A stretch of DNA of 64,000 bases from Clostridia bacterium (GCA_017452445.1 JAFTMH010000002.1:129697-193696); one strand, 5' to 3'. Positions 9,001 through 52,417 are shown, counted from the first letter of the stretch. Made by a program: numbers and translations. The notes: generated by a model from the sequence alone, not told the origin.

Positions 9001-9148
9001 ATGAAAAATTCTCTGGGTCAATGTTTTTCTCATTAAATTCACCCATCAAGAACAATGTCAGCGCTGTGCCACCTGCAATGGCAATCATGCCTGCAAAAAC
9101 AAGCAACACTGTTTTCCAAAGACTAAGAACTTTTCCCTTCTTCTTCAT
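1..9148 (-). CDS. Giant secreted/surface protein, N-terminal part only (>3049 aa); the ORF continues past the left window edge
   Basis: ATG at 9148 lies 7 nt downstream of GGAG (9159-9156 on the minus strand). My hand translation of this frame reaches position 2 without a stop. The N-terminus MKKKGKVLSLWKTVLLVFAGMIAIAGGTALTLFLMG is a signal anchor. The rest is Thr/Val/Asn/Asp/Tyr-rich and contains repeated modules. No track ORF falls in this frame, which fits an ORF with no stop inside the window. Confidence 0.85.
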   Translation of the reverse strand, partial: MKKKGKVLSLWKTVLLVFAGMIAIAGGTALTLFLMGEFNEKNIDPENFSFVETVVDGEAYCSGMEQGNYVFQTSSDFKLMITTGTEDATNKEITLQLKGGVTRNGYVSDGIISVKEKAEIGKPIDIMLVKQFNSDINDNWVVGGQGLRSELTAKSENINLPSQKIYISVDVPVYDIDVDISVDDQSEQETEGDVREIALGSTFAVDATFTPGDSEYLFGDASTSKKQFYKFSASCIDYNWTTGKFLAKTKTEGVNLDYITVYVFSNSFYQKEFFDREDVKSITDPYELNAKAIQYFTECETNNETYKFKTDTINIKVKEEEVRQVVVDVKADGTETWYAYVDKKFYITTGTSLDSNENFGLVIKGEKVTLNTLVGNFGIKLPKTADNVILKGGDIIKVVETEGVYTITMEEYDPTVNYFAAEAGIEYYLLPDSTPENYNEYFWEFSTTQAQSLELKYNFFQQKDGVWTNFFDFASENKVVLEAQNHDIETVPSWSKLDAIPLVINYDETGKPISSNVDLADEIQDVDKDNIYRTVKYFLFIDRNEMGFAETINMLETFNCSDAVLYAADYKGQALVIPNTTTPAEGFTLYELSSSVLTAKKSYAGAVKVVAALVRTNADNKIVYDEGGKYQIVAFGKTRVVTVESTLSVANMTPTFVMSENVETDVDGNFFVPAVKRNESGEQATMITFKMVLENSEDVASDSEKVVAAFEAGTLDVVCVGIDGKETNQYVKLAGLAETAVEETTVTFEGALNVNEGLFKAATAGLDQGTYVRLLLKYNDGKETYEKEIVHAETGKEYFRIYYQQPTSLVGDYATNPNINIASTIEVNISATDGTSIKWGTEQLAGNTTEDVMATLNNYLTFKMQDQRNKDIDYADGLYTYKLVEEPLPGNSKILSFDSTQTKIANFSSTEGESVTTKLYVYAITTNGDNIKFEGNDLRVGAFTFQITSQGVSRVEYDSTTLIQESADQIVYTDVDEDSNALTTKSVVYVSKYVKPESLINLAELINVYTTDEDGTEVLASDLRFYLDNGYLSSMEASTDAQFDIMKMLAFDVESDAEDEDSIVYYKNKLISQISIVNPFNESTTVTFRVRDTAEALFDITLNVVFLSDLTIAHNFNNFYEANKDYLVSKDSQIGVLAGTAYDLDSFFPIVSAQHGTGTTYTWVGSLKDRSEDDLKSNPEGVFYDNGNICSIKPILDDGGNVEKMVLEIGEISEYKTITLVLYYGTNSQYACRVEVTLYVNPNFVIKQNVNEEGDIPFVDLGLLATANPASHYSVYKLTEYLAADKKFDSLTAVAGISYTNISTSKYITVTESSFGLEQAQLQMTLGEVFEQKFKIMIGTSAVAAPIVSCYTDGTSSTAKCPDVFATINFQIGFGAGDPATMASTILKKKVGVNKVDVPIVEYEGQTMLVLVAGFEYEAQGGFNITNNITGQIKQSAAGLMVYGTIPNYVSFEGNEFVVKRDISSGPKTLEVFITLKAVVSQIGENFVVYEDDKDAALDVLLGDYQALEDAGVAQQLVAGKSYQVVYDTDLEITDPNPYGFYFEGTTAGLTGESKTANYTLSIVEEAEGYVENLATVEGDRLVINNMGDSYTDAYIVLKLDVVMAGDNSKAISWYYRIHVVPNFVMGQIYYPYADGAEYLDSASVYYKENATYEIDFEETLNPGNSKHSVDPADPQPTRFGLVEWAETPAEAIVYRYNVVSAENVSGAIPTGQYANYFTYSVSDAGVMTITLANAANKLKVVVRRSIFVGDIEVIGGTQDYVFLFNQSANYVPTVTLDGTPLTHENYIYRVTLNAGADDYSTLKVSLVETSNNTSSPVDSFSVFYGAADFDIFMTCVDDLYIDEEVSEIYILPAWAVDKDYEFVVGIFTDQKLAFRVFVTITSYFDWEDNTVTEFVGGKTYYTSESIDGNAVANATGTNTFFTSISSNKDGTTVEDVLFTLTNGDEVYSDAGTPEDDSDDILYSDLVKFDLATKSITFARLEKDVTFNFDITITDSDGMDYTFAISKLVKADFDRKKVAGYDITNAIFAADTETVSIGDILNCFKGTSETEVADYQFATAANVIVCENVSTLTFKNTTLTVNYLFEGKVISTFTVKCSYAIKPNVTVVAHGAAPDGTTELTSLGPDGETMIATEYVSTFETSTYEANGVQKASETYPNFFANKALLGLANRVVGTKIEPATITEAEWQWKISVYSLTNAVVIYNGKVISAESTDKILSTTGTLTDIVFGLIDQSSNGEVVFSVEINAVPVLYKVVLVNGEVILTEFNQPNWENGQEKIYAEDLAGYEDQHLFAEDRIVTYTFKATVEPTKTYYLKFVNATQGIEYIVATKAKTPGSKENVDFGKVLTGYAYQGTYESKENASENVGAITDSNIYDFAPTIKNRIVAKYYTGTVLEGITIKFVKNQERYLNYKFKAAQVADTTYFLRFENTTSGAVQVVEIVVKNPGTAVSVDYTSALKGYAYVGTFSSQAKAESNEDKLTDTNIYETAPTLTIANTAANRVDAATTLLTKDDYGKSVIYSVVVSIGTVNIETNNPYTVFMDVEFTVQGNADSMTGYRTINIKAGEEKSLLTTYNSGLADIINKRTGLHYTPQALQESTGNIDLRMYGYTSDSTRYAGDDLYQTAVAFDSKLTTTTNELGIKYYTGLSIKNGDYNFGTLDEVADGDVEGNYISYSGEQPAGKKIDYLIYARGANNDGNHVMMRITYSVDLGGASNKIEVSHNLLFKVEPNSTVRFKSKHEASSIYNAAGIETVDGKTIASNYENPYAIDGTDPIKFYLYNNTQTALLQENSTVQAYLYGNTDTALNNSNRFTYRYLSDGNSTYQGNKTYNDYTLNITDATGWTDITGGKENAYSADRGSVAVNTVALQLGSRYYVIEGEDEYGYKIRFYFTITAPSNPQIYSADTSITEGESIAVWLRTKTVSIAGQTADDQRTVVYNPFTFIRNDSTGNFSNTIDVTNPANITNVRVTVLGVVVDDGEPNHTTIDGVSEIYRDFTLGTGGTDTFEIYKEQSDIGSTDNKWKYVKIDSNGTPSSPIDVAAEASIVAAPTP

Positions 9149-9345
9149 AAAAAATCTCCAAAAAATAATTTCTCAAAAAAAACAAAAAAATAAATTTAAT
9201 AATATTGAAATTGAATTAAAAATATTGTTTGCTATTTTCGATAAATTAATTATACATTTTTTTTATTTATTTTGCAAACAAATCAATTCGTTTTTTTTAT
9301 TAAATAATAAAATATATATAGGCATCATTTTGTCTTTGGTTTAGG

Positions 9346-17570: not shown

Positions 17571-19466
17571 TTATGTTTGCAACAAAACTGTATCTCCTTC
17601 GTTTAGGATTGTGCCTGCAGGTGGAAGCTGTTTAACCACAAATCCACCTTGCCCATCAATTTCACAACGCAAATTTTGTTTTGCAAGCATTGCAATCGCA
17701 TTTGAAACACTTAAACCTTCAAGATGAGGCATAGTTGTCTTTTTTATTTCAACTGACAGGTTGTCTTTTTTGATATCGAAAAACTCAAAATACTTTTCAA
17801 AAAACAGTTTGCCATAAGGTGCAGCAACAACAGCCCCATAATATGCGCCAGCACTTGGTTCGTCCACCAAAATCACAAACAAAAGGTCAGGATTGTTTGC
17901 AGGATATGTGCCTATAAAACTTGATATATATTTTCCGTTTGCAATCCTTCCACTTTCATCATATTTTTGTGCAGTGCCTGTTTTTCCACCAATGTTGTAA
18001 CCTTCAACAAATGAAAAATCGGCTGTTTTGTTTTCTGCCTTTTCTAGCAGAAAGTTGACCTGTTTGCTGGTCTTGGAAGAAACAATCCTTTGGGGTTTGT
18101 TTGGATTTTGGTATAGTTGTTTGCCTGAAACATCAACAATGCTTTTGATCACTGTTGGAGTGTTGAAAATTCCATCATTTGTGATTGCGCACACAATGCT
18201 TGCAAGTTGAATAGGTGTCACTGCAATCGCATGCCCAAAACCCATGCGTGCCAAATCTACATTTTTGACATTTTGTTTTGACATAACAATCCCTGCACTT
18301 TCGCCTTTGATTGTAATGCCCGTTTTCTTGCCAAGACCAAATCTTTGCATATAGTCATAAAACCTGTCTTTGCCAAGTCGAAGCGCCAAATCCATAAAAC
18401 AACAGTTGCACGAGTTTGCAAAAGCTTCTATCAAATTTTGACTGCCATGACCTATGCTTCGCCAACACTTTATCCTTTGTCCATCAACAATGCGATAACC
18501 TGGGCAATAAAATCTATCATCAAAGTTTGTCAGCCCTTCTTCAAGTGCAGCAGCAACTGTCAAAATTTTGAATGTTGACCCAGGTTCGTAAGTGTCTGTC
18601 ACTGCTTTCATTTTTGAATATTCAAACAATGCTTTCAAATCATCTCTTGGCACATTGTTGAGATCAAAACTTGGTTTTGAAGAAATCGCAAGTACCTCTC
18701 CACTTTTGATATCAAGCACCATTCCTGTGACAGCTTTTGCTTTTTGATCAATGTATGCTTGCATCAAAACTTGCTCAAGCAAAATTTGAATCTTACTATT
18801 TGCTGTCAGTGTTACATCTGCGCCAGCTATCCCTTCAACATAATATCTTATCGAGTTTGAAATCTCTTTGCCTTGCAAATCGCTTTGCACACTGCTGTAG
18901 CCATCAATACCTGTAAGATAGTCATTTAAATAAGCTTCAAGCCCTGCTTGCCCTTGATTGTCGATAGATGAAAAACCTAAAAGTTGAGTAAGCAAATCCC
19001 CATAGACATAATATCTGCCTACATTTTCAGACATATAAATTCCATCTGCTTTAAGTGCATAAATTTGTTGTGCCAAATCACCTTCTATGTTCATTTTAAG
19101 CAACACTTCCGAAACTTTTTTGTTTTGAAGTTTGCTTTTTGTTTTTTCAAAATCCAATTGCAAAAGTTTCGAAAGTTGACTTGCCAACTCTTCGGCATTT
19201 TTCACTTCTCTTGCCCTTGCATAAACATTATAAGTGGTGTAACTGACTGCCAAAGTGTCGCCTGTTGCATCAAAAAAAGAACCTCTTGGAGCAGTCAATG
19301 TCAAATCTCTTGTCCATTGATCAGTTGCTCTTTGTTGAAGTTCTTTTCCATTTATTATTTGCACTACAAAAAGCTTTACACACAAACTGCAGAAGATGAT
19401 AATCAATGTCAAAAATATTGCTTTAATCCTCTTTTGCAGTGAAAATAATGTGTAAGGTTTTTGCAA
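17571..19466 (-). CDS. Class B penicillin-binding protein (FtsI/PBP2B-like) with a C-terminal PASTA domain
   Basis: Transpeptidase motifs STFK, SCN and KTGTA are present, with an N-terminal TM helix. I chose the TTG at 19466 (GGAGG 6 nt upstream, 2 nt after the upstream stop) over the track TTG at 19502. Confidence 0.9.
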   Translation of the reverse strand: MQKPYTLFSLQKRIKAIFLTLIIIFCSLCVKLFVVQIINGKELQQRATDQWTRDLTLTAPRGSFFDATGDTLAVSYTTYNVYARAREVKNAEELASQLSKLLQLDFEKTKSKLQNKKVSEVLLKMNIEGDLAQQIYALKADGIYMSENVGRYYVYGDLLTQLLGFSSIDNQGQAGLEAYLNDYLTGIDGYSSVQSDLQGKEISNSIRYYVEGIAGADVTLTANSKIQILLEQVLMQAYIDQKAKAVTGMVLDIKSGEVLAISSKPSFDLNNVPRDDLKALFEYSKMKAVTDTYEPGSTFKILTVAAALEEGLTNFDDRFYCPGYRIVDGQRIKCWRSIGHGSQNLIEAFANSCNCCFMDLALRLGKDRFYDYMQRFGLGKKTGITIKGESAGIVMSKQNVKNVDLARMGFGHAIAVTPIQLASIVCAITNDGIFNTPTVIKSIVDVSGKQLYQNPNKPQRIVSSKTSKQVNFLLEKAENKTADFSFVEGYNIGGKTGTAQKYDESGRIANGKYISSFIGTYPANNPDLLFVILVDEPSAGAYYGAVVAAPYGKLFFEKYFEFFDIKKDNLSVEIKKTTMPHLEGLSVSNAIAMLAKQNLRCEIDGQGGFVVKQLPPAGTILNEGDTVLLQT

Positions 19467-19468
19467 TT

Positions 19469-20182
19469 TTAACCTCCAAAAATTCCACCTATGAAATTGC
19501 AAATTCTGTCAAACCAATTGCTTTTTTCACCCGTGTCGCCAGCTTCATTCAAATCTTCTGGATATGTCGGAATGATTTCCATGCTCTCTTTTGTTGTGTC
19601 AAGTTTTGCAAGGTTTTTAAGATATTTGGCAAGATTGAGTTGGTATGTTTCATCAAGACTTACAATCGAAGATTGCATATTGTCAATGATCACAGCATTT
19701 GTCACGCAAATTGTTGCACTCAACCCAAAAGCAATCGCAAGTGCCAAAAACCAGTTTTTCTTTTTTGATTCGGGTTTTTGTTTGTCTTGTTTTTTGCGAC
19801 CAAGTTTGACAATTTTTTTGTTTTCTTCAATCAAATCATAGTTTGGTTTTTCAATAATATTTTGATTGGCTGTCTGGTTTTCTTCTTCTGTTTTTGCTTC
19901 TGTTTCAAATTGTTGTTGAATAAGTGTTTCTTTTTCTTTTTTAAACTGCTCTGCTTTTTCTTGTTCTTCTTTTCTTTTGAAGTCTCCAATTGTGATGTCA
20001 TCAAGCGAATTAAGATATTCAGTCTTTGAAGAAACAACTTCTTCTGGCGAAGGTGTTATTTTTTTTATAGTTATCTTTGGCAATTTGCGTTCGGTTTCTA
20101 TTTGTTGAGTTTTTGTTTCTTCTGTTTTTGTTTCTTCTTCAACAACAGTTTCTGTTTCTTTTTCCAAAACAAGCTTTTCCAT
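19469..20182 (-). CDS. Bitopic membrane protein in the FtsL position, with a long Glu/Lys/Thr-rich N-terminal extension
   Basis: One TM helix (WFLALAIAFGLSATICVTNAVII). It lies between rsmH and the PBP gene, as ftsL does in division clusters. This is a position-based call only. Confidence 0.45.
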   Translation of the reverse strand: MEKLVLEKETETVVEEETKTEETKTQQIETERKLPKITIKKITPSPEEVVSSKTEYLNSLDDITIGDFKRKEEQEKAEQFKKEKETLIQQQFETEAKTEEENQTANQNIIEKPNYDLIEENKKIVKLGRKKQDKQKPESKKKNWFLALAIAFGLSATICVTNAVIIDNMQSSIVSLDETYQLNLAKYLKNLAKLDTTKESMEIIPTYPEDLNEAGDTGEKSNWFDRICNFIGGIFGG

Positions 20183-20219: not shown

Positions 20220-21155
20220 CTACAACTTTTCTGCAATTCTAAGTTTTGCACAAGTGCTGCGAGAATTTGTTTTTTGTTCTTCTTCTGTTGCGATGATTGG
20301 CTTTCTGTTTGTCAAGGTTATGCTTGCTTTGTGGCCACAAATACAAATCGGCGTGCGTGGTGGACATATGCAACCTGTGCTTGCAAATTTGAAAACATTT
20401 TTCACAATTCTATCTTCAAGACTGTGGAATGTCAAAATGCAACCTCTGCCTTTTGGTGCAAGCATATCAACAAGTTGTTCCACCAATTTGTCAAGGCCGT
20501 CAAGTTCGTCATTTACATAAATTCTAATCGCTTGAAAAACTTTTTTCGAAGCGCCACCTCTTGAAAACACTACCTTTTTAGGTATGCTATTTTCAATTAT
20601 CTCTCTAAGTTGAAATGTCGTTTCAATCGGATTTTGTTCTCTTTCTTTGACAATGTGTTTTGCAATGTTTTTAGCAAACTCTTCTTCTCCATAAGTTTGA
20701 AAAATCCTTACGAGATCTTCATAAGAAAATTCGTTTACAATTTCTTTGGCTGTAGTTGTTGCTTCTTGTCTGTCCATTCTCATGTCAAGTGGACCATCGT
20801 GCACAAAACTAAACCCTCTTTCACCAGTGTCGATTTGATAACTGCTTACACCCAAGTCAATCAAAAACCCATCAATTTTTTCGATGCCAAGTTCTTTCAA
20901 TTTTTCTGGCGCTTGTTTGTAATTTGATTTAATCAATGTAACCTTGTCGGCAAACTCTTTGAGTGTTTGAGTGCTCTTTTCGATTGCATCTTCATCTCTG
21001 TCAAAAGCATAAAGATGACCACCTTTCAACCTTTTGGCAATTTCAAAAGAATGTCCACCACCACCAACAGTGCAGTCGACATAAATGCCGTCTTCTTTTA
21101 TGTTAAGTCCATCTAAAACTTCGTTGAGCATAACTGGGATATGTTTAAAATCCAT
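20220..21155 (-). CDS. rsmH: 16S rRNA (cytosine1402-N4)-methyltransferase
   Basis: MDFKHIPVMLNEV...DCTVGGGGHS...DLGVSSYQ...FHSLEDR motifs. ATG at 21155 with a GGAAG RBS; the track start at 21188 is less likely. Confidence 0.93.
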   Translation of the reverse strand: MDFKHIPVMLNEVLDGLNIKEDGIYVDCTVGGGGHSFEIAKRLKGGHLYAFDRDEDAIEKSTQTLKEFADKVTLIKSNYKQAPEKLKELGIEKIDGFLIDLGVSSYQIDTGERGFSFVHDGPLDMRMDRQEATTTAKEIVNEFSYEDLVRIFQTYGEEEFAKNIAKHIVKEREQNPIETTFQLREIIENSIPKKVVFSRGGASKKVFQAIRIYVNDELDGLDKLVEQLVDMLAPKGRGCILTFHSLEDRIVKNVFKFASTGCICPPRTPICICGHKASITLTNRKPIIATEEEQKTNSRSTCAKLRIAEKL

Positions 21156-21252
21156 AAATACTTCCTTTATAAGGTTATTGTAACACAAACATTTTGCTTA
21201 AACAAACAATTTGAAAAACAAAAAGAGAGTTGTTGTCAACCCTCTTTTATTT

Positions 21253-24147
21253 TTATTCAACATCAAAAAGCGAAATTAAAGCATTTTTAAGTTCTTCTCT
21301 TCCGTCAAATTCAGTGTCGATCGCTTCGTTGATTGCCACTGCATAATTTGTTTTGTCTTGTTCGTCAAGCAATGTTTCACCTCTGTTTTCAAGAAGTGTT
21401 TTTGCAGAATTGATAACATCTGCAAGTTGTTGATCTGTGTTTGAAGTTGACATTTCTTCAATCACACCAGACACAGCATCTACATATGCCTGCACATCAT
21501 CTACAGAATCCAAACTCTTTCCTTCAAGTGCTGTTGAAAGTTTGTCAGCAAAATCAACTGCTTTTTCAATTTCTACCAACTCTTCGGCAAAGTTGATTGA
21601 ATAATAGTCATCATTTGCGCTCACTGCAAGATATGCTTTGATGTCTGCACTGTTTTCGTGTGGAGTGCAACCTGTGTAGTCAACACCGTTGATAACATCA
21701 CCAGTCATATACCAAATAATGTTTGCAAAAATGTTGTTGAATACACCATCTTTTGCACCGTTGTTGTATGCGTTTTCTTTAAGAATATCCAAAATAGATC
21801 CAATTTCGGCATAACCAACTTCCTCAGTATTTAAAACTGTGTCAAGAAGTGTTTCAATAATTTCAATAACTTCTGTTTTTGTTTCTTTAAGATTTGTCAA
21901 ATCTGTTGCAGGTTTCACTCCTGTAAAATCTGAACTTCCAATAATGTTGTCAATTTCATCAAACATTTTTGCTGTCAAATCTTCAAAAATAATTCCTTCA
22001 AAAATAGAGTCAAGACAAGAAGTAAGTTTGTTGTCATTGATCATTTCTTTGAGAAGAAGTTCGAAATCAGGGTTTTCTGAAAGCAAGTATTTTACATAAG
22101 TTTGTTCGCCCAACTCTTGTGTTGTGATTGTGCCATCACTCATTTGTGAAAGGGCATTTCCAAAAATTTTGAATTGTCCGTCCCAAAGTTCTATCTTTTG
22201 TTTGTCGGTCAAACCTGTTTCGTCCAATTTGTCAAAATTTACCAAATCGCCTGCTTGTGAGTTGAGATAATCAATTGTCGAATCAAACACCAAACTTTTC
22301 AATTCCAACGCTTTGATTTGGTAGAATGGAATCATTATTTTTGAAATAATGTCTTCTTCTACTGCAAGCCCTACAACAAGGTTGTCAAGGACTGTTTCCA
22401 TTGTCATATCTTCGCCGTCAAGTTTTGTAAATTCAAATTCTACTGCAAGGTCAATAGGTTCTGCAAGATAAGTGAAAAACGATTCGTAAGTTGAAAGTGT
22501 TGTTTTTTCTTGAGCAGAAACTGTGAGATAAACTTCTTCTTCAAGAAGATTTATATCATACATTTTCAAAATGTTGTCAAACACAAAAACCTTTTCAGAT
22601 CTTTCACCTTCAACAACAGGAAGTGTCAAAATTTCAAGGTTTTTCATTTTGTCAAAAGTTTGTCCAATTTGAATGAGAGTTCCGTCAATGTCGTTTACAG
22701 ATGAAATTGTATCTACAACATTTTCACCTTCAATCAATTTTGAAAGATCAATTTTGTCATTGAGTGACAAGAAGTCATCAAGAGCGTCCATAAAATCATC
22801 AACAAGTTTGTCTGTGTTTTCTACATCAAGGTTAAGACCAAATTCCAATCCTTTGTCATTTTCAAAAACCTTTGAAAATTCTTTGTTTGCATACTTGCCA
22901 AAAATTGAAATTCCATCTTTTACAATGTTGAGACTGAGTGCATCTTTTGCTATATTTTTGATTGTTGTATTTTTGTTTTTGATTGTGTCCAAAATACCTA
23001 TAAATGTTTTGTCTGTCGCATTTTGGAAACTTGAAACAACCCCTTTTGCAAAAAGACCATCGACAACATCTACAATTTTGAGAATGTCGTGTTTAAGATA
23101 GTTGTAAACATCTTTAGTTTCAAAAGAAGTTTTAAGTTTTTCAACAATATTCTTTACATCATCTGAAATGTTTGAAATCTTTAAATCTTGCATTATTTGA
23201 TCAAAATCGTTGACAATATCTTTAACTGTTTCTACAACGACTTTCTTAAAGATTCCCATTTCCATAAAATCTTCCAAAGCCATTTTTACTTTTGAAGTAT
23301 CTATATTTGAATATGTTTTGTTTTGAATGTTGTTGTAAACTACAACAAACTGATCATAGGTGTTTGTTGTTGTGATAAGTTCTTTTCTTAAACTTATTTT
23401 TTGTCCTTCAACTTTGAAGTTTGCCATGCCATCAAACATCATGTTGTTTACGCCACCAAATCCAGAGATTTTTGCAACTGGACCTTTGTTGAACGCTTCA
23501 ATAGCCTCTCTTACACTTTTTGGCAAAGCTTTTTCCATTTCGTCACCAATTGTGTTGAGATTTTTTGCTTGGCTGTCAGACAAGGCTTGCACTTGCGCTG
23601 TTGTTGCATTTGCACAAATTTTGTCGTATGTGTTTGTAAGTGATGTGATTGGTGCAAAAACAAAAACCAAAAGTATCAATCCTTGAACAAGTCCAACAAG
23701 CGCGCCATACGCACGATATGGTTTGTGTTTTTCAAAATCATTTTTTCTCTTTCCAAAACAAATTCTGTTGAAAATCATTGCGATAAGACTAAATATTCCG
23801 GAGCAAACAATTCCCAAAAGCATAAAAATGATTGGTGAAACAATTGCTGCTGGCAAGTTTGAAACAAAACCCTTTGCAGTTGGCAAGTTTGAAAGGTTGA
23901 AACTTGATTGGATCACTTCCATAATATAACTGCTGATGGTATATTTTGTCCCTTCAACTGTTAAACTCGCTCCCAAAATTGCATTTGTGATTGGTTTGGT
24001 GATAAAGTATGCCAAAACGAGCGACAAAACCATAAAGATTGCACTAAAAGCAGATCTTTTAAGTCCTCTAAATAAGCCTACGCAAAAACCAACTCCCAAA
24101 AACAAAACTAAAATTGATATGCTTATCCAAGTGATTGCTGATGCCAT
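21253..24147 (-). CDS. Large membrane protein: a multi-pass N-terminal domain of about 180 aa (CvpA-like by pattern) plus an acidic soluble region of about 780 aa
   Basis: 964 aa ORF with AAAGGAG RBS. Four or five hydrophobic helices at the N-terminus are followed by Asp/Glu/Asn/Ile-rich sequence with no recognised catalytic motif. Confidence 0.6.
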   Translation of the reverse strand: MASAITWISISILVLFLGVGFCVGLFRGLKRSAFSAIFMVLSLVLAYFITKPITNAILGASLTVEGTKYTISSYIMEVIQSSFNLSNLPTAKGFVSNLPAAIVSPIIFMLLGIVCSGIFSLIAMIFNRICFGKRKNDFEKHKPYRAYGALVGLVQGLILLVFVFAPITSLTNTYDKICANATTAQVQALSDSQAKNLNTIGDEMEKALPKSVREAIEAFNKGPVAKISGFGGVNNMMFDGMANFKVEGQKISLRKELITTTNTYDQFVVVYNNIQNKTYSNIDTSKVKMALEDFMEMGIFKKVVVETVKDIVNDFDQIMQDLKISNISDDVKNIVEKLKTSFETKDVYNYLKHDILKIVDVVDGLFAKGVVSSFQNATDKTFIGILDTIKNKNTTIKNIAKDALSLNIVKDGISIFGKYANKEFSKVFENDKGLEFGLNLDVENTDKLVDDFMDALDDFLSLNDKIDLSKLIEGENVVDTISSVNDIDGTLIQIGQTFDKMKNLEILTLPVVEGERSEKVFVFDNILKMYDINLLEEEVYLTVSAQEKTTLSTYESFFTYLAEPIDLAVEFEFTKLDGEDMTMETVLDNLVVGLAVEEDIISKIMIPFYQIKALELKSLVFDSTIDYLNSQAGDLVNFDKLDETGLTDKQKIELWDGQFKIFGNALSQMSDGTITTQELGEQTYVKYLLSENPDFELLLKEMINDNKLTSCLDSIFEGIIFEDLTAKMFDEIDNIIGSSDFTGVKPATDLTNLKETKTEVIEIIETLLDTVLNTEEVGYAEIGSILDILKENAYNNGAKDGVFNNIFANIIWYMTGDVINGVDYTGCTPHENSADIKAYLAVSANDDYYSINFAEELVEIEKAVDFADKLSTALEGKSLDSVDDVQAYVDAVSGVIEEMSTSNTDQQLADVINSAKTLLENRGETLLDEQDKTNYAVAINEAIDTEFDGREELKNALISLFDVE

Positions 24148-24231
24148 AATCTTCTCCTTTTTTGTTATTTTTTTTCTTTTATATTTTAGTTAATTTACTT
24201 ATATATATAATATATATCTATAATAATGCCG

Positions 24232-25314
24232 TTATTTTGCAATATTTCCGTCTTTTATATAGTATAAAACACCTTCTATTTTTCTTTCATCTGTGCAGGT
24301 TATAAATGTTTGTGTCCTATCAACAAATTTAAGCAATCTTTTTTGTCTGTCCAAATCGAGTTCGGAAAACACATCATCTAAAAGAAGAATTGGATATTCT
24401 CCATTGAGATTATACAAATTTTCAAGTTCTGCCAACTTAAGAGACAATGCAACAGTCCTCTGTTGTCCTTGCGAACCAAAATTTTTAACTTCAACATCAT
24501 TAAGAAAAATATCTATATCATCTCTATGAATTCCGATTGAAGTATAACCCAATTTAAAATCCTTTTCAATGTTTTTTTGCAGATTTTTTGTCATATTTTC
24601 TTCAAAATGATCATCAAGTTTTGTGTTGCAACCACATTTATATTGAAGAGAAATATTTTCTTTTCCACCACTTATATAAGAATGTGCTTTTTGCGAATAT
24701 GGCAAAATTTGCTCTAAAAACAATTTTCTTTCAAATGCAATGTATTTTGCAGCAGCAACCAAAGCCCTATCCCAAATGTCAACAGTTTCTTTGACAATTT
24801 CAATAGTTTTTGAATTTTTGAGCAATTTGTTTCTGTTTGCCAAAATTTTTTCGTATCTTCCAAGTTGATAAAAATATCTCTTGTTACTTTGCGAAATTGC
24901 AATATCCATAAATTTTCGGCGTTCTTCTGGACTTTCTCTAACAAGTTTAAGTTCTTGTGGCGAGAAAAACACAATGTTTACTTCACCAATCAACTCTCCC
25001 ATCTTTCTGATTGGAAGTCCATTGATTTGAATTGTTTTTTTCTGTTTTGTGAAAAGTTTTATGTCAATATCAACATCTCTATATTTTTTTTCGGCCTTAA
25101 GTTTTATAGATCCGTTTTCTTCTCCCCACTTGACAAGTTCTTTATCTTTGCAAGATTTAAAACTTTTTCCAATACAACAATAATAAATACTTTCAAGTAA
25201 ATTTGTCTTTCCTTGAGCATTTTTTCCTATAAAAACATTGATTTTGTCATCAAATGAAACAGAAAGTGATTTGTAGTTTCTAAAATTGTTGACAGTAAGG
25301 CCTTGAATTTTCAT
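24232..25314 (-). CDS. recF: DNA replication and repair protein RecF
   Basis: N-terminus KIQGLTVNNFRNYKSLSVSFDDKINVFIGKNAQGKTNLLESIYY contains the Walker A. The SMC-like signature FGSQGQQRTVALSLKLAE and Walker B LLLDDVFSELD are also present. Confidence 0.92.
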   Translation of the reverse strand: MKIQGLTVNNFRNYKSLSVSFDDKINVFIGKNAQGKTNLLESIYYCCIGKSFKSCKDKELVKWGEENGSIKLKAEKKYRDVDIDIKLFTKQKKTIQINGLPIRKMGELIGEVNIVFFSPQELKLVRESPEERRKFMDIAISQSNKRYFYQLGRYEKILANRNKLLKNSKTIEIVKETVDIWDRALVAAAKYIAFERKLFLEQILPYSQKAHSYISGGKENISLQYKCGCNTKLDDHFEENMTKNLQKNIEKDFKLGYTSIGIHRDDIDIFLNDVEVKNFGSQGQQRTVALSLKLAELENLYNLNGEYPILLLDDVFSELDLDRQKRLLKFVDRTQTFITCTDERKIEGVLYYIKDGNIAK

Positions 25315-25382
25315 CAACTATAGTTTACCACAAAACTAAAATTTTTCCAAGTCCGTTGACGATTTAATATTTTTAAACTTAC

Positions 25383-25411
25383 TTGACAATTTCTTTTATA
25401 CTACTTATAAT
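25383..25411 (+). promoter_or_regulatory. dnaA promoter
   Basis: TTGACA at 25383-25388, a 17 nt spacer, TATAAT at 25406-25411. Confidence 0.7.
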
Positions 25412-25439
25412 AAGCATATATAAAAATATAACAGGATTT

Positions 25440-25472
25440 CCTTTCTTTGTTTTCAAGAAAGGGTTTTTGTTG
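25440..25472 (+). terminator. Terminator-like hairpin inside the dnaA 5' leader (possible attenuator)
   Basis: CCTTTCTT / AAGAAAGG stem with loop TGTTTTC, followed by GTTTTTGTTG. It lies between the promoter and the dnaA RBS (AAAGGGG). Confidence 0.5.
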
Positions 25473-25485
25473 AAAGGGGTTTTCT

Positions 25486-26838
25486 ATGCAAAATGTAAAA
25501 ATGCTTTGGCAACAAGTGTTGGAAAAATTGGAACTTAGAGTTTCTTCTGTTTCTTACACACTTTGGATCAAACCAATCAAACCAATTGAAATTGATGAAA
25601 AAGATAATTTTGTGATTGCTGTGCAATCTCTTTCTGCAAAAAATCAACTTTTGCGCAATTTTATCGATAAAATTGTCGAATGTTGCAACGAAATTTCAAA
25701 CAAAACACTCAATTTGGTTGTTTTGGATCCAAATGAAGAAATTGAATATCTCAAAAATTTGAAAACTGCTCAAGAAAAAGTTTCACACAACAAAAATGAC
25801 AAAAATCCATTTACTCCAGAATTTACTTTTGACAACTTTGTCGTAGGAAAAAGCAACCAATTTGTTTATACTGCTGCACAAGCTGTTGCTCAAAACCCAG
25901 GTGGAGACAGTTTCAATCCATTGTTTATTTATGGAAACTCTGGTCTTGGAAAAACTCACTTGATGCACGCCGTTGGAAATTATGTAAGACAATATTTGCC
26001 AGAACTTAAAATAAGATATTCAACTTGCGAACAATTTGCAAACACATATATCACAGCACTTATGTCATCATCAAAAAACAAATCTATTATGGATTTTAGA
26101 GATATTTATAGAAATCTTGATGTTTTGATGGTTGATGATATTCAATTTTTGTCTAGAGGAAAAGAAATTCAAGAAGAATTTTTCAACACTATCAACGAAT
26201 TGATTTTGGCTAAAAAACAAATTGTTATTTGTTCTGACCGTCACCCAAATGAAATTGCAACTTTGGAAGAAAGAATCAAAACAAGACTTGTCAGTGGACT
26301 TATCCACGATGTTGGCAAACCTGATCTTGAAACAAGAATTGCAATTTTGCATAAAAAAAGTCAACTTGAAAACTATTATGTAGAAGACGAAGCAATAAAT
26401 ATGATTGCTGAAAGAATTGATACAAATGTAAGAGAATTGACCGGAAAATTGAAAGAAGTTTATTTTCTTGCAAAAATCAACGGAAAAAAGATTGCAACAA
26501 AAGAAGAAGTAAACGAAATTTTCAAAAATCAACAAGAAGAACTTAAAAACGAACTCACAGAAGACAAAATTATTGCAATTGTGTGCGAATATTTCAATAT
26601 TTCGCGCGATGACATTGTTGGGAAAAAGAAAAATAAAGAGATTGTAGAACCAAGAATGATTGCAATTTATCTTATAAGTGAGATATTAAACCTTCCACTT
26701 AAGACAATTGGATCGGTTTTTGGTGGCAGAGATCACACAACAATTATGCATTCTAGAGATAAAATAACCCAAGATCTTAAATCAAACAAAAAGACACAAA
26801 CAATTATCAACGAAATCAAAGGACTTCTTTCAGTCTAA
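25486..26838 (+). CDS. dnaA: Chromosomal replication initiator protein DnaA
   Basis: 450 aa. FTFDNFVVGKSNQF, the AAA+ Walker A GNSGLGKTHL, DDIQFL, and the C-terminal DNA-binding helix GRDHTTIMHS. Confidence 0.97.
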   Translation: MQNVKMLWQQVLEKLELRVSSVSYTLWIKPIKPIEIDEKDNFVIAVQSLSAKNQLLRNFIDKIVECCNEISNKTLNLVVLDPNEEIEYLKNLKTAQEKVSHNKNDKNPFTPEFTFDNFVVGKSNQFVYTAAQAVAQNPGGDSFNPLFIYGNSGLGKTHLMHAVGNYVRQYLPELKIRYSTCEQFANTYITALMSSSKNKSIMDFRDIYRNLDVLMVDDIQFLSRGKEIQEEFFNTINELILAKKQIVICSDRHPNEIATLEERIKTRLVSGLIHDVGKPDLETRIAILHKKSQLENYYVEDEAINMIAERIDTNVRELTGKLKEVYFLAKINGKKIATKEEVNEIFKNQQEELKNELTEDKIIAIVCEYFNISRDDIVGKKKNKEIVEPRMIAIYLISEILNLPLKTIGSVFGGRDHTTIMHSRDKITQDLKSNKKTQTIINEIKGLLSV

Positions 26839-26846
26839 AAAACAAG

Positions 26847-27083
26847 TTATGCACATCCAATTTTGTCAAAGTGCATAACTTTTTTTAATTGCACACACAG
26901 TTGTCCACATTTATCCACATAGTGCAAACACTACATATAGACAGTATTCGACAAATCTCGACACCACATGTTGTTGTTTTTGAAATTTGCAAAAAAGTTA
27001 TGCACATTTCAACACTCCCTAATAAGGGTTATTGTTACATAAATAAATTAAATAAATAACAAAAAAGGATTGCGTGTGGACAG
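26847..27083. promoter_or_regulatory. oriC candidate: DnaA-box cluster in the dnaA-dnaN spacer
   Basis: Perfect TTATCCACA at 26911-26919. TTGTCCACA at 26901-26909. TTATGCACA at 26847-26855 and 26998-27006. Inverted TTATGCAC at 26871-26879. TGTGGACAG at 27075-27083. An A/T-only run ATAAATAAATTAAATAAATAA lies near 27040-27060. Confidence 0.75.
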
Positions 27084-27126
27084 GCAAGTGTGGTATAATA
27101 AGGCTAGATGAAAAGGAGTAAAAATT

Positions 27127-28227
27127 ATGTTAGTTAGTTGTCACGGAATAGAACTTTCAGATGCTTTCTTGAGTGTAAGCAAAGCAATATCAAACAAAAT
27201 CACAAATCCAATTTTGGAAGGAATCAAAATCGTAGCTGAAGATGATACACTTACTTTGAGTGCTACAGACACAGAACTTTCAATCGAAAAGAAAATCAAA
27301 GCAAACATCAAAACTGAAGGTGAAGCTGTTGTGCCAGGAAAGTTTATCACAGAGTTTATTAAAAAGCTCACAAATGAAATGATCGAACTTGAACTCAACG
27401 ACAGAAACCAAATGATTGTAAAATACAACGACAGTCAAAGTATCATTCAATGCTATAATGTTTTGGAATACCCATCATTCAAAACTCTTGAAACAATGGA
27501 ATATTTTGGAATTGCAAAAAAAGATTTGAAAACAATTATCAACAAAACAATCTTCTCAGTTGCAGTTGATGATTCTAGACCAATCCTTAAAGGTGTGCTT
27601 TTTGATATTGAAAAAAATGTTATCAATGCAGTTGCCCTTGATGGATACAGACTTGCAAAAGTAAAAAAGAACATTGTTTCTGATCTTGACATCAACATTG
27701 TTATACCTGCAAAGAGTTTGTCAGAAATTTCAAGACTCTTGGACGACAGTGATGAAATGATCAATGTTTATGTTGACAAAAATGCTTTGATGGTAGATTT
27801 TGGAGATACAAAACTTACAACAAGACTTCTTGAAGGTGAATTTGTAAAATACAAACAAATCATTGCAGCAAACTATGAAACTGTTTGTGTTGTAAACAAA
27901 GAACAATTTGAAGATGCACTTGAAAGAGCATCATTGCTTTCAAAAGTTGGACAAGGAAATTGTGTAAAATTTGAAGTGAAAGAAAAGAATTTGTGCATTA
28001 CATCAAATTCAGAACTTGGAAATGTGAAAGAAAATGTGCCTGTAAACATGAAAGGCAAAGAACTTTTGATTGCATTTAATGCAAGATACTTTATCGAAAA
28101 CTTGAAAGCAAACAATGACGAATTTGTAAAAATCTGTTTCAATGCACCTGCAAACCCATGCGTAATCGTGCCTATTGAAGGAGATGAATTCTTGTATTTG
28201 ATTTTGCCTGTAAGAATGATAGGATAA
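27127..28227 (+). CDS. dnaN: DNA polymerase III beta sliding clamp
   Basis: 366 aa with an AAAGGAG RBS. Position immediately after dnaA, plus typical clamp length and motifs (LLEGEFVKYKQII, PVRM at the C-terminus). Confidence 0.93.
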   Translation: MLVSCHGIELSDAFLSVSKAISNKITNPILEGIKIVAEDDTLTLSATDTELSIEKKIKANIKTEGEAVVPGKFITEFIKKLTNEMIELELNDRNQMIVKYNDSQSIIQCYNVLEYPSFKTLETMEYFGIAKKDLKTIINKTIFSVAVDDSRPILKGVLFDIEKNVINAVALDGYRLAKVKKNIVSDLDINIVIPAKSLSEISRLLDDSDEMINVYVDKNALMVDFGDTKLTTRLLEGEFVKYKQIIAANYETVCVVNKEQFEDALERASLLSKVGQGNCVKFEVKEKNLCITSNSELGNVKENVPVNMKGKELLIAFNARYFIENLKANNDEFVKICFNAPANPCVIVPIEGDEFLYLILPVRMIG

Positions 28228-28232
28228 CATTA

Positions 28233-28258
28233 AAAGACATCTTATGATGTCTTTTTTT
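28233..28258 (+). terminator. Intrinsic terminator after dnaN
   Basis: AAAGACATC-TTAT-GATGTCTTT followed by a T run. Confidence 0.75.
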
Positions 28259-28454
28259 GTTGCAAAAATTGACATAAAATGTGGAAAAATTACGTTTTTT
28301 GTGTTATTTTAAATAAAAATTTTTTATATAAAAATTATATATTTTTTATTATATATATAAACAGGCTTTTTGTTTTATATTATCGCAGGAAAAAATGGTT
28401 TAGTTTTTGCGACAGAATGTGCCAGAATAATTATAAAAAAGAGTCCGTTTGCAG

Positions 28455-28483
28455 TTGACAAAAATGTTTTTGTCCTGTATAAT
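28455..28483 (+). promoter_or_regulatory. rpmH operon promoter
   Basis: TTGACA at 28455-28460, a 17 nt spacer, TATAAT at 28478-28483. Confidence 0.75.
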
Positions 28484-28537
28484 AAGTCGGTAAAAGAATT
28501 TACACACAAAAATTGCTAAAAGTTTAAGGAGAAAAAA

Positions 28538-28672
28538 ATGAAAAGAACATACCAACCAAAGAAGGGAAAAAGAAAAAAAGTTCATGGATTCCGTGAAAGA
28601 ATGAGAACAAACGGCGGAAGAAATGTTTTGAAGAGAAGAAGAGCAAGAGGCAGAAAACAAATCGCTGCTTAA
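28538..28672 (+). CDS. rpmH: 50S ribosomal protein L34 (44 aa, below the ORF-track cutoff)
   Basis: Translates to [53 protein letters not shown]. Immediately upstream of rnpA. Confidence 0.95.
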
Positions 28673-28683
28673 AAGATTGAGAG

Positions 28684-29016
28684 ATGGAGCATAGATTAAG
28701 AAAAAACAATCAATTCAACTATATCTACAAGAAGGGAGAAAAAACTCATACAGACAATTTGACTCTTTTTGCTGTTAAGAGCAAATACGAAAGTTATAAA
28801 ATCGGATTTTCAATCAGCAAAAAGTTGGGCAAAGCACATGAGAGAAATCTTTTGAAAAGAAGGATGAGAGAAATTTCTAGAAAATTTGTGTCGATTCCTT
28901 CTTTTTGTAATTTTGTAGTTTTGGCAAAAGAAAATGCACCAAAACTTGATTTTGTTGAATTGAAAGAAGAAATGATTAAGTTGTTTGAAAAATATGAAAA
29001 CAAAAAACATTCTTAA
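28684..29016 (+). CDS. rnpA: Ribonuclease P protein component
   Basis: 110 aa basic protein (LRKNNQFNYIYKKG..., KAHERNLLKRRMRE) in the conserved rpmH-rnpA position. Confidence 0.9.
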   Translation: MEHRLRKNNQFNYIYKKGEKTHTDNLTLFAVKSKYESYKIGFSISKKLGKAHERNLLKRRMREISRKFVSIPSFCNFVVLAKENAPKLDFVELKEEMIKLFEKYENKKHS

Positions 29017-29257
29017 AAAAATTTGTTTATTTCCTGTGTATATCTACAAATACGCAATTTCTCCATTGTTGCCACATAGTTGCATTTTTACGCCAACTTG
29101 TTCCAACTATATGATCAAATCAGTCCATGAATTTGGGGTTTTCAAAGGTGGGTGGATTGGTCTTAAGAGAATTTGCAGATGTGTTCCATGGCAAAAGAAG
29201 AGAGGGTATGACCCTGTGCCTATAAATATTAAAGGAGATAATATATGGATTTTGTGA
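28994..29257 (+). CDS. yidD: Membrane protein insertion efficiency factor YidD
   Basis: ISPLLPHSCIFTPTCSNYMIKSVHEFGVFKGGWIGLKRICRCVPW...GYDPVP. I prefer the ATG at 28994; the track uses TTG at 28985. Confidence 0.88.
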   Translation: MKTKNILKKICLFPVYIYKYAISPLLPHSCIFTPTCSNYMIKSVHEFGVFKGGWIGLKRICRCVPWQKKRGYDPVPINIKGDNIWIL

Positions 29258-30654
29258 GCACGCTCTTGACAACTCTCACACCCCCAAAAGGAATGTGGGA
29301 ATCAATTTTGAGTGCTTTCAAGAACGGGACTGGATCTTATGTGTGGGCAGTTATTTTGATTGCCTTGATTGTAAGAGTTGTTTTTTCACTTGTTGACATT
29401 GTAAACAAGAAAATAACAATGAAAAACACTGCAATCCAAGAAAAGATGAAACCAGAACTTGAAGCTATTCAAAAGAAATATGGTCATGACAAAACTCTTA
29501 TGCAACAAAAACAAAACGAAGTTTACAGAAAATATCAATTCAACATGATGGGAAGCTGTTTTCCAATGTTGATTATGACAATTTTGCAACTTGTTGTGTT
29601 TATGACTTTGTGGACAGGTCTTCAAAGTGTTGCAAACTACAATATTGCAGAAAAATACGACAATATGAAGTCAGTTTACACAAGTGTAATAACTCTCAAC
29701 GAAGATGATGACTTCAAAAATTTTGTTGTTGACTATTATCAAGATGGAGACTCTATTTCTGCTGCACTTTCAACAAATGAAGAAGGTGTTAAAATTTTGA
29801 AAGTCGAAATTTCAAATCCAGATGACAATGCACCCGATGTAAGAGAATTTGCTCTTGCAAAGACAGAATTGTCAAACAAAGAAATTTATGAATTGCTTTT
29901 GAAATATGTCATTGTGCCTGAGACAGAAACAACCGATCCAACTGATCCAGATGCACCAGCAGAAGGAGAAACAATTGTTGGTTTGGAAGAAGAATCTGGC
30001 GAAGGTGATGGCGAACAACAAACACCACCTGCAACAGAACCAACAATCACTTATGTTGATACAGGAATCAACAATGTTGTAAAAATTTTGGCAGAAAGTA
30101 TTTCTTCACAATATTATCTTGACAATCAAGAAGGATTTTTGTGGATTGACAATGTTTACAAACCAGACGCTCCACAAACTTCACTTTTCACAGAAAGAGA
30201 AATCAAGAGATATATGTCAGGTTTCTACACTAAAGAAGAAAAAGCATTGGAAAAAGAACATGATTATGAAGGAAAAATATTCAATTATGTTGTAAATGAA
30301 GGTGTTGGAAAACAAAATTTGGGCAAAAACGGATATTACATTTTGACAATTATTGCTGCAGCAGCATCATTCTTGTCAATGTGGTTGTCAAACAAGTTGA
30401 TGAACAAAAATAAACCTGTTGACCCAACACAAAAGAAGTTTAAAATGACTTACTTCATTATGCCAGTTATTTTTGCAATCTTCACAATGAGTTACACAAG
30501 TTTGTTTGCGATTTACATCATCAGTGGACAACTTGTTATGATTGGATTGACTCCACTTACTACATGGCTTACTCAAAAATGGACTCAAGCATCTGAAAAG
30601 AAGAAAAAAGAAAAAGATGTGATCGTTGTTGATTACAGAAGAAAAGATAAATAA
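29245..30654 (+). CDS. yidC: YidC/Oxa1 family membrane insertase with an insertion of about 240 aa
   Basis: Core motifs YVWAVILIALIVRVV...MKPELEAIQKKYG...QQKQNEVYRKY. The C-terminal TM helices and basic tail are present. A long acidic, Pro/Thr-rich segment (about aa 140-380) lies between the TM regions. Confidence 0.88.
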   Translation: MDFVSTLLTTLTPPKGMWESILSAFKNGTGSYVWAVILIALIVRVVFSLVDIVNKKITMKNTAIQEKMKPELEAIQKKYGHDKTLMQQKQNEVYRKYQFNMMGSCFPMLIMTILQLVVFMTLWTGLQSVANYNIAEKYDNMKSVYTSVITLNEDDDFKNFVVDYYQDGDSISAALSTNEEGVKILKVEISNPDDNAPDVREFALAKTELSNKEIYELLLKYVIVPETETTDPTDPDAPAEGETIVGLEEESGEGDGEQQTPPATEPTITYVDTGINNVVKILAESISSQYYLDNQEGFLWIDNVYKPDAPQTSLFTEREIKRYMSGFYTKEEKALEKEHDYEGKIFNYVVNEGVGKQNLGKNGYYILTIIAAAASFLSMWLSNKLMNKNKPVDPTQKKFKMTYFIMPVIFAIFTMSYTSLFAIYIISGQLVMIGLTPLTTWLTQKWTQASEKKKKEKDVIVVDYRRKDK

Positions 30655-32095: not shown

Positions 32096-32479
32096 ATGAG
32101 TGATTCGGATTTGTCTAATATGAGAAGTGTTGTAAAACTTGCACTTATAAAAATTGGGATAAGATGTGATTTGGTCGGATTTAATTATTTATGTTATGCA
32201 ATCGAACTTGTCGTCATCAACCCAAGACTTATACACAAGTTGTGCAAGGGACTTTATTTGGAAGTAGGAAAGAAGTTTAAAACAGACAACGAAATCTGCA
32301 TTGAGCGCAGCATAAGACATGCGATTGAAAACACTTACATAAATAAAGGTTTTATCGAACTTAATCGTATGTTTAATGCTCAACTTTATACAATAAATGA
32401 CAAACCCACGGCTGGAGAACTTATCAGACTTGTTGCAGAGTATTACAATTTGGGTTTGTATAGATTGAACAAGTATTAA
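32096..32479 (+). CDS. Stand-alone Spo0A C-terminal-like DNA-binding protein with no receiver domain
   Basis: Aligns by eye to the B. subtilis Spo0A effector domain: ERSIRHAIENTY versus ERAIRHAIEVAW, and DKPTAGELIRLVAEYY versus AKPTNSEFIAMVADKL. Confidence 0.75.
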   Translation: MSDSDLSNMRSVVKLALIKIGIRCDLVGFNYLCYAIELVVINPRLIHKLCKGLYLEVGKKFKTDNEICIERSIRHAIENTYINKGFIELNRMFNAQLYTINDKPTAGELIRLVAEYYNLGLYRLNKY

Positions 32480-51592: not shown

Positions 51593-52417
51593 ATGCATAC
51601 ATGTGAAGCTACAGGAAAAACTATAGAACAAGCAATTCAAAACGCATTGTTGGAACTCAAAGCCGCAAGAGAAGATGTAGACATCAAAATTTTGAGCGAA
51701 GGTGGATTTCTTAAAAAAGCAAAAGTAGTTGTTTCGATTTCAGAAGATGCAATCGAAAAATACGAAAAGAAAGAACAGTTTAAAAAATCATTGGCAGAAG
51801 AAGAAAAAGAAACAGCAGACGAAGACTTTGCAGAAAAGTTTATGGAAAAGAAAATTAAAATTATTGCTGATGAAGAATATGTAAAACCAGAACCAAAAAA
51901 AGTTGAAAAGACTGAAGCTCCTGCAAAGAGCGAAGAAGCAGTTGCAGAAAAGAAAGAAAGAATCGAAAGAAAACTCACTGCAGAAGAATTTGTTGGTGGC
52001 GTGCTTCAAGCGCTCAACCTCAAAGGCGAAATTCAAAAAACAGAAGATGAAAAGTTTGTTCGCTACAATGTTGCTGGCGAAGATCTCAACGACCTTATTG
52101 GTCACCATGGCGATTGCATGATGGCACTCTCTTATTTGATGACTTTGACTTGCAAATCAGAAGACAGAAAGAAAATTGTTTTGGATGTCGAAGGTTACAG
52201 AAAGAAGAGAGAAGAATCTTTGATTGCTTTGGCAAAAAGAATTGCAAGCAAAGTTGCAAAATCTGGACAATATTACAAACTCGAACCTATGGATGCAAGC
52301 GAAAGAAAAATTATCCACACAGCATTGCAATCTGATGACAGAGTTACAACTTTGAGCAAGGGAGAAGAACCTCGCAGATATTTGATGGTTTTTCCAAGAG
52401 AATACAAAGAAAACTAA
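51593..52417 (+). CDS. jag: RNA-binding protein Jag/KhpB (Jag_N, KH and R3H domains)
   Basis: Jag_N GKTIEQAIQNALLEL. R3H region MDASERKIIHTALQSDDRVTTLSKGEEPRRYLMVFP. Terminator at 52450-52482. Confidence 0.88.
   Translation: MHTCEATGKTIEQAIQNALLELKAAREDVDIKILSEGGFLKKAKVVVSISEDAIEKYEKKEQFKKSLAEEEKETADEDFAEKFMEKKIKIIADEEYVKPEPKKVEKTEAPAKSEEAVAEKKERIERKLTAEEFVGGVLQALNLKGEIQKTEDEKFVRYNVAGEDLNDLIGHHGDCMMALSYLMTLTCKSEDRKKIVLDVEGYRKKREESLIALAKRIASKVAKSGQYYKLEPMDASERKIIHTALQSDDRVTTLSKGEEPRRYLMVFPREYKEN

Follow-up and report, generated by a model that had tools for sequence, protein, structure and literature searches.

Where does replication start on a chromosome in which dnaA and dnaN are turned round relative to the genes on both of their sides, and how did such an order arise? 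Both questions are raised by a stretch of 64,000 nucleotides from a Clostridia bacterium (GCA_017452445.1 JAFTMH010000002.1:129697-193696; this whole 64-kb stretch is called the window), which carries recF(-), dnaA(+), dnaN(+), rpmH(+), rnpA(+), yidD(+) and yidC(+) in this order. NCBIfam profile scans of the open reading frames (ORFs) of the window identified these genes at the coordinates and on the strands proposed in an initial annotation. The explanation that we favour, to which we give a probability of about 0.85 taken as a whole, has two parts: a single, continuous and DnaA-dependent oriC would lie in the dnaA-dnaN spacer (26839-27126), and the gene order, which is typical of the lineage, would go back to one ancient inversion of the dnaA-oriC-dnaN segment.

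The organism is a Candidatus Caccovivens-like bacterium, and the window holds its chromosomal replication origin. The closest species representative in GTDB is a metagenome-assembled genome (MAG) of Candidatus Caccovivens, whose DnaA is 97% identical and whose gene order matches over 21 kb. Caccovivens is the GTDB genus UBA11517, in the family UBA1242 and the order Christensenellales (PMC8035907). UBA1242 is an uncultured gut family of reduced genomes, mostly smaller than 1 Mb, and presumably relies on partner organisms (PMC12306168); the UBA1242 paper also mentions many hypothetical membrane proteins as possible mediators of contact with partner cells. As relatives we took 80 loci from 80 GTDB species-representative genomes, with DnaA proteins 47-97% identical to that of the window, and the window proteins were mapped onto each of them. 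The best 120 matches listed for DnaA are all at least 69% identical.

Boxes with at most one mismatch to TTATCCACA occur 42 times in the window, where 19 are expected, and four of them share a 160-bp stretch of the dnaA-dnaN spacer (26847, 26901, 26911, which is a perfect TTATCCACA, and 26998). The initial annotation had described a cluster of one perfect and several one-mismatch boxes in this spacer, and these are the boxes in question. With TTWTNCACA as the consensus, the spacer contains three exact and three one-mismatch boxes and is the densest 300-bp stretch of the window (0.31/kb overall). The segment 27020-27059, just past the last boxes, is 88% A+T and stands at the 99.3rd percentile of duplex instability in the window. 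GC skew changes from -0.13 (24-26 kb) to +0.18 (27-29 kb), and its cumulative minimum falls at about 26.1 kb, inside dnaA. On the other side of dnaA, the sole box of the recF-dnaA spacer is TTTACCACA at 25324-25332, as weak as had been announced (two mismatches to TTATCCACA, one to TTWTNCACA). Counted as above, boxes with at most one mismatch number zero in this spacer of the window, and in the loci with an adjacent recF(-) single boxes occur in L023 and L071 only. The origin, placed beforehand at about 25.4-27.1 kb, is thus supported and can be refined to the dnaA-dnaN spacer.

The architecture of the spacer is conserved in relatives. Across 35 loci of the window type, one of which is the window, the density of exact TTWTNCACA boxes is 5.25/kb in the dnaA-dnaN spacer, versus background values of 0.37/kb in the recF-dnaA spacer and 0.40/kb in the dnaN-rpmH spacer. 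Since box density is high only between dnaA and dnaN, the origin appears to be a single-part module, similar to oriC2 and to the basal unwinding system (BUS), placed just upstream of the dnaN promoter. Within 10 kb on either side, most window-type relatives have a negative skew to the left, a positive one to the right and the minimum no more than about 1.5 kb from dnaA. In most of 50 loci, the 40-mer with the lowest or nearly the lowest stability of the locus falls between dnaA and dnaN, at 50-165 nt upstream of dnaN, and in 43 of the 50 the dnaA-dnaN spacer is less stable than the dnaN-rpmH spacer.

An alignment of the spacer (A1) with 14 relatives, whose DnaA proteins are 67-97% identical, gives a conserved order of elements. 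Its 5' part consists of a minus-strand box AGTGnATAA, two tandem plus-strand boxes and the palindrome-like CACnATATnTTGTG; in its 3' part, the tandem pair AAGTTATnCACATTTCCACA is followed by 3-5 GC-rich bases, central-T triplets, AT-rich DNA and the dnaN promoter, aligned as TTGC... and then TGnTATAAT. AAGTTATnCACATTTCCACA is the consensus of this second tandem pair in relatives, and in the window it corresponds to 26998-27014. The palindrome-like CACnATATnTTGTG (A1 columns ~216-230, conserved in the middle of the spacer) is degenerate in the window, where it reads ACACCACATGTTGTTG at 26961-26976, and might be a site for an origin-binding factor of some kind.

The 3' part of the spacer can be compared with the BUS, which is defined as a DnaA-box pair and a spacer, followed by at least three consecutive trios (3'-NAN-5') within 16 bp and by AT-rich DNA (PMC8287927). 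A box pair of the kind required there (at most two mismatches, with an optional weaker second box) is found at 26998 and 27006. Triplets with a central T on the top strand read 3'-NAN-5' on the bottom strand, which is the DnaA-trio pattern. The third trio of the window is AGG, and therefore the strict rule of at least three consecutive trios within 16 bp is broken: two good trios are followed by a deviant one and by three more good ones. This 2 + 1 + 3 pattern is also seen in several relatives, and six consecutive trios are present in L005, L024, L025, L029, L033, L062, L064, L075, L078 and L080. On average, 57 loci have 4.79 trios out of six, versus 3.92 in shuffled sequences.

The module resembles incC of Bacillus subtilis and oriC2 of Clostridioides difficile, both of the BUS type, in its location between dnaA and dnaN (PMC7561715). 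Tandem boxes, a GC-rich spacer, central-T triplets, AT-rich DNA and the dnaN promoter are likewise shared, and are kept across relatives. It differs from incC and oriC2 in the AGG trio, and in that the window is known here from its sequence alone. The bipartite Firmicute origins (oriC1 plus oriC2), such as those of B. subtilis and C. difficile, are matched in their downstream, oriC2-like half. However, the window has no box cluster upstream of dnaA, the window-type relatives have none in the spacer directly upstream of it, and the origin is continuous; without an oriC1, the window does not have a bipartite Firmicute origin. The dnaA promoter of the window also has no obvious DnaA boxes for autoregulation, unlike that of the bipartite origins. 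Continuous origins in the dnaA-dnaN spacer are present in Actinobacteria such as Mycobacterium and Streptomyces, where the canonical flanks are kept, and Streptomyces has many more boxes.

Two further motifs lie in the origin spacer of the window: TTCGACA at 26948-26954, the reverse complement of the Spo0A "0A box" TGTCGAA, and CTCGACA at 26958-26964. Both are limited to the window and L001.

Regarding gene order, the canonical layout is as the initial annotation had put it. We checked it in E. coli K-12, where it reads gyrB-recF-dnaN-dnaA / rpmH-rnpA-yidD-yidC, and a rnpA-rpmH-dnaA-dnaN context has been described for B. subtilis and clostridia (PMC7561715; PMC4285127). The gene context of oriC is known to vary between lineages (PMC4285127). 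The window resembles this layout in that the genes are clustered, dnaN is directly downstream of dnaA, and both the rpmH-rnpA-yidD-yidC unit and the jag-mnmE-mnmG-rsmG-parA-parB unit, with parS nearby, are present. In contrast to it, the dnaA-dnaN cassette stands reversed between its two flanks: rpmH-rnpA is not divergent upstream of dnaA but follows dnaN, and recF is not downstream of dnaN on the same strand, with gyrB, but on the other side and the other strand, divergent upstream of dnaA. As the jag-to-parB genes are also on the plus strand at the right, the whole rpmH...spo0J block is found on the right side of dnaA, directed away from this gene. The locus also differs from the canonical one in the absence of gyrB, gyrA and yaaA (no gyrB or gyrA among the scanned ORFs of the window, no yaaA in the locus) and in the 21 kb that separate yidC from jag. 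Orientation had been described as mostly minus on the left and mostly plus in the core genes on the right. The left neighbours of recF are on the minus strand, and from jag (51593) on all genes are on the plus strand, while between 30.7 and 51.5 kb orientation is mixed and mostly minus.

This order is shared by most of the sampled relatives. The genes dnaA, dnaN and rpmH(+) follow each other on one strand in 49 of the 80 loci, and the full arrangement of the window, with recF(-) directly upstream, is found in 34, down to 47% DnaA identity. At 54% identity or more the canonical order does not occur, and every locus on a long enough contig has dnaA>dnaN>rpmH(+). The flipped order is therefore an old family trait and not a recent inversion. 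Other states are present too: recF(+) is upstream in 13 loci, eight of which also have dnaA>dnaN>rpmH(+); six loci have dnaA without any of these neighbours; and the gene ami367 is shifted upstream in L017, L024 and L025. A canonical-looking yidC-rnpA-rpmH(-)/dnaA(+) is found in one subclade (L038-46), in which pth(-) and a gene(-) for a 731-aa protein put 3.5 kb between dnaA and dnaN (e.g. L041, 9693-16094) and genes of the dcw (cell-wall and division) cluster converge on dnaN. In these genomes GC skew does not switch at dnaA, and boxes do not cluster near dnaN; thus their origin may lie elsewhere.

In a neighbour-joining tree of DnaA plus DnaN (distances, tree and bootstrap computed in numpy, rooted with E. 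coli), the dnaN>rpmH(+) adjacency occurs both inside and outside the clade with 100% support that contains L038-46. It is present in every well-supported major clade with informative flanks, except L038-46 and the group with an isolated dnaA. The simplest reading makes this adjacency the ancestral state of the sampled set, from which the direction of the change would follow. Literature searches brought up no paper that describes this gene order or a UBA1242 origin, and a 2025 mSphere paper on UBA1242 mentions neither dnaA nor the origin.

We hypothesize that DnaA would bind the conserved set of boxes, the last tandem pair of which adjoins a short GC-rich spacer, and that the duplex would open at the array of DnaA-trio-like triplets, with its 3-nt period, and at the AT-rich stretch just upstream of the dnaN promoter, in an unwinding module of the incC/oriC2 type. 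Forks would then depart both ways from the dnaA-dnaN spacer. On the left arm, recF and the start of the dcw cluster (minus strand) would be co-directional with the fork, and so would dnaN, rpmH-rnpA-yidD-yidC and jag...parB (plus strand) on the right arm; dnaA alone would be head-on, as it is in the canonical layout. A single inversion of the dnaA-oriC-dnaN cassette would be enough to turn the canonical rnpA-rpmH / dnaA-dnaN-recF into the order of the window, and it probably took place in the ancestor of the family or earlier, so that the arrangement is now typical. Because the cassette is centred on the presumed unwinding site, its inversion leaves the direction of each gene relative to the forks unchanged. 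Symmetric inversions around the replication origin, reportedly described by Eisen et al. in 2000 and by Tillier and Collins in 2000, are said to have endpoints on opposite sides of it and to preserve gene orientation relative to replication in this way. The segment in the window differs from those inversions in being only about 3 kb long, essentially dnaA-oriC-dnaN, and in being fixed across a family. It would be the smallest possible inversion of this kind, and should thus be nearly neutral. Since gyrB/gyrA and yaaA are absent and 21 kb separate yidC from jag, further changes must have accumulated.

Several points weigh against this explanation. The trio pattern of the window is reached by 16% of shuffled sequences and is not significant by itself. 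GC skew was computed over the 64 kb of this genome and over +/-10 kb in relatives, not over whole genomes. Deep nodes of the tree are weakly supported (bootstrap 17-50%), and the sample has no close Christensenellales outgroup from outside UBA1242, so that both the depth and the direction of the rearrangement are deduced. The loss of gyrB/gyrA and yaaA from the locus implies more than one rearrangement or deletion. Finally, of all 40-mers in the 64-kb window, the one with the lowest stability is not in the dnaA-dnaN spacer but at 28320-28359, in the dnaN-rpmH spacer, and is 100% A+T.

This last point favours a different origin, bipartite and flanking dnaN instead of dnaA, with the unwinding site or a second part in the dnaN-rpmH spacer. 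An exact TTWTNCACA box is indeed located 30 nt from the A+T tract (28280-28288, minus strand, TTTTCCACA, that is, TGTGGAAAA; it is the box in opposite orientation that the initial annotation had pointed out), and remnants of an ancestral rpmH-side oriC1 would be expected in this spacer after the inversion. We consider such an origin quite improbable, since the box and the tract are conserved nowhere beyond the window and L001, the spacer ranges from 93 to 3380 bp across relatives, with boxes at background density, and it is the more stable of the two spacers in most loci. In a box-spacer-trio module, moreover, the tract would have to be on the other side of the box, and it stands directly upstream of the perfect rpmH promoter, of which it may be an UP-element-like region. 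As it is not conserved, we rejected it as the main unwinding element, and take it to be a species-specific AT tract that precedes the rpmH promoter. The same box had served to argue for a recent inversion of dnaA-oriC-dnaN in this genome, with recognisable breakpoints at 25315-25485 and 28228-28537. Formally, the layout of the window is one inversion away from the canonical order, and the flip of the cassette against both flanks is real. A recent event is nevertheless very hard to maintain: the order extends to the 34-49 species-level relatives counted above and is the norm across the clade, independent assemblies of the species repeat it, and the 28280 box is not conserved. Inverted repeats, proposed as a check, did not help either. 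Of 186 pairs found in 24100-28700, none of the 25 longest joins 25318-25485 with 28228-28537, and the best pairs (70-80%) are AT-rich, low-complexity sequence elsewhere. The breakpoints can be placed only as the recF/dnaA and dnaN/rpmH gaps. Neither is the order an assembly or binning artefact, a chimeric join to which a genome known from metagenomes only could be exposed: the exact window DnaA is on record on 11 contigs, and the four that we read, from four samples and assemblers, all have recF(-), dnaA, dnaN, rpmH, rnpA and yidC(+). As dozens of independent MAGs have this order as well, the probability of an artefact is negligible.

Two other histories deserve more weight, while both seem unlikely to us. 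In one of them, recF, rpmH-yidC and jag-parB moved by separate translocations during genome reduction, and the resemblance to a cassette flip is a coincidence. Rearrangements beside dnaA are in fact frequent in the family (recF(+) upstream, the displaced ami367, the isolated dnaA, L038-46), and the absence of gyrB/gyrA and yaaA also speaks for this history, as does the separation of yidC from jag by 21 kb of other genes. On the other hand, one inversion alone explains the strand and the side of recF, rpmH-yidC and jag-parB, whereas translocations would require several independent events, none of which disturbed the co-orientation with replication. For a circular chromosome, the two histories are hard to distinguish. 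The other history, slightly less improbable than the previous one, treats the dnaA-oriC-dnaN of UBA1242 as a small, single-part and self-contained cassette that lacks both an oriC1 and boxes at the dnaA promoter, and whose flanks would have been repeatedly reshuffled at its borders, giving recF(-) or recF(+) upstream and rpmH downstream. The nested subclade L038-46 apparently regained rpmH(-)/dnaA(+), and in it the origin would have left dnaA. If true, this would mean recurrent origin-centred inversions and possibly the relocation of an origin away from dnaA in one subclade.

With a single ancient inversion as the favoured history, the origin in the window works in an ordinary, DnaA-dependent way and has the gene order that is typical of the family, and no new mechanism is revealed. 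Its origin is narrowed down to a 288-bp spacer in an uncultured gut lineage of reduced genomes. The practical value is modest: this placement can help to orient and close MAGs and to estimate growth rates from coverage, while origin predictors based on rpmH-dnaA-dnaN-recF synteny will mis-describe UBA1242. The family can also be seen as a natural case in which only the oriC2/BUS-like half of a Firmicute origin is left, and a cassette flip that does not change gene orientation relative to the forks fits an unwinding site between dnaA and dnaN.

Table 1. Genes, spacers and origin elements of the window (positions counted from its first nucleotide).
Feature	Position	Strand	Remarks
SpoVD/penicillin-binding protein (SpoVD-type)	17571-19502	-	left of recF
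237-aa ORF	19469-20182	-	function not assigned; left of recF
rsmH/mraW	20220-21188	-	left of recF
964-aa CvpA-domain protein	21253-24147	-	between recF and rsmH
recF	24232-25317	-	TIGR00611, E 3.6e-110, full length; start probably ATG at 25314; divergent from dnaA
recF-dnaA spacer	25318-25485	.	dnaA promoter, leader hairpin; without DnaA-box cluster
dnaA	25486-26838	+	TIGR00362, E 1.1e-137
dnaA-dnaN spacer, putative single-part oriC	26839-27126	+	288 bp; box cluster, trio-like array, AT-rich DNA, dnaN promoter
DnaA box TTATGCACA	26847	+	
DnaA box TTATGCACT	26870	-	
DnaA box TTGTCCACA	26901	+	
DnaA box TTATCCACA	26911	+	perfect
DnaA box TTATGCACA	26998-27006	+	1 mismatch
Weak DnaA box ATTTCAACA	27006-27014		3 mismatches; tandem partner of the 26998 box
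Single base, then CTCC run	27015, then 27016-27019		last C opens the first trio
Trinucleotide array CTA ATA AGG GTT ATT GTT	27019-27036	+	begins 12 nt past the box
AT-rich DNA	27020-27065		
dnaN promoter	27070-27075 and 27091-27099		-35 TTGCGT; extended -10 TGgTATAAT
dnaN	27127-28227	+	TIGR00663, E 9.3e-85
dnaN-rpmH spacer	28228-28537	+	dnaN terminator, one DnaA box, A+T 40-mer, rpmH promoter
rpmH	28538-28672	+	NCBIfam TIGR01030
rnpA	28684-29016	+	NCBIfam TIGR00188
yidD	28985-29257	+	NCBIfam TIGR00278
yidC	29245-30654	+	NCBIfam TIGR03592
jag	51593-52417	+	NCBIfam
ORF between jag and mnmE	52490-53737	+	function not assigned
mnmE	53802-55139	+	NCBIfam
mnmG	55144-57012	+	NCBIfam
rsmG	57028-57726	+	NCBIfam
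parA	57838-58668	+	NCBIfam
parB	58658-59602	+	NCBIfam
parS TGTTTCACGTGAAACA, two perfect palindromes	59614-59629 and 59734-59749	.	

Perfect sigma-70-type promoters (TTGACA-17-TATAAT) precede dnaA (25383-25411) and rpmH (28455-28483), and a dnaN terminator hairpin is located at 28232-28255. The recF-dnaA spacer is about 70 nt longer in the window than in most relatives. Between the dnaA promoter and the start codon, a terminator-like hairpin TCCTTTCTTTGTTTTCAAGAAAGGG is followed by the T-run TTTTTG (25439-25463), and this leader hairpin could act as an attenuator.

Most relatives with at least 66% DnaA identity also have the block from spoVD to the CvpA-domain gene on the left side of recF. 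The 964-aa CvpA protein has its domain (Colicin_V) at the N-terminus only and, while syntenic, evolves fast (31-40% identity in relatives). With its 469 aa, YidC is long by Firmicute standards, and its insertase domain is matched in two separate stretches; it is the least conserved protein of the cluster, at 42-56% identity where the DnaN of the same relatives reaches about 85-90%. At the left end, an ORF of at least 3057 aa (2-9172, minus strand) continues beyond the edge of the window; Pfam gives zero matches for it.

The roughly 21 kb of genes in mixed orientation that separate yidC from jag (30689-51460) include many ORFs without a family match (269, 524, 563, 330 and 216 aa), a DUF4874/DUF4832 protein, mgtE and a 436-aa helix-turn-helix protein. 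That this insert (30.7-51.5 kb) is a mobile element was considered but finds no support, as neither Pfam nor NCBIfam matches an integrase, a transposase or a phage gene in it. An ORF of 127 aa with only a Spo0A_C domain is found at 32096-32479. An Rfam scan of the whole window gave two tRNAs only, and no rRNA. The parS palindromes place parABS about 33 kb to the right of the origin; 0.52 matches at up to two mismatches would be expected by chance in the parS scan. Boxes of the TTATCCACA type are also present at 50308, 50866 and 52311 (perfect) and at 52856 and 52882 (one mismatch), so that three of the five perfect TTATCCACA boxes of the window fall within 2 kb around a tRNA and jag. B. subtilis has a DnaA-box cluster near jag-thdF, which these boxes around jag resemble.

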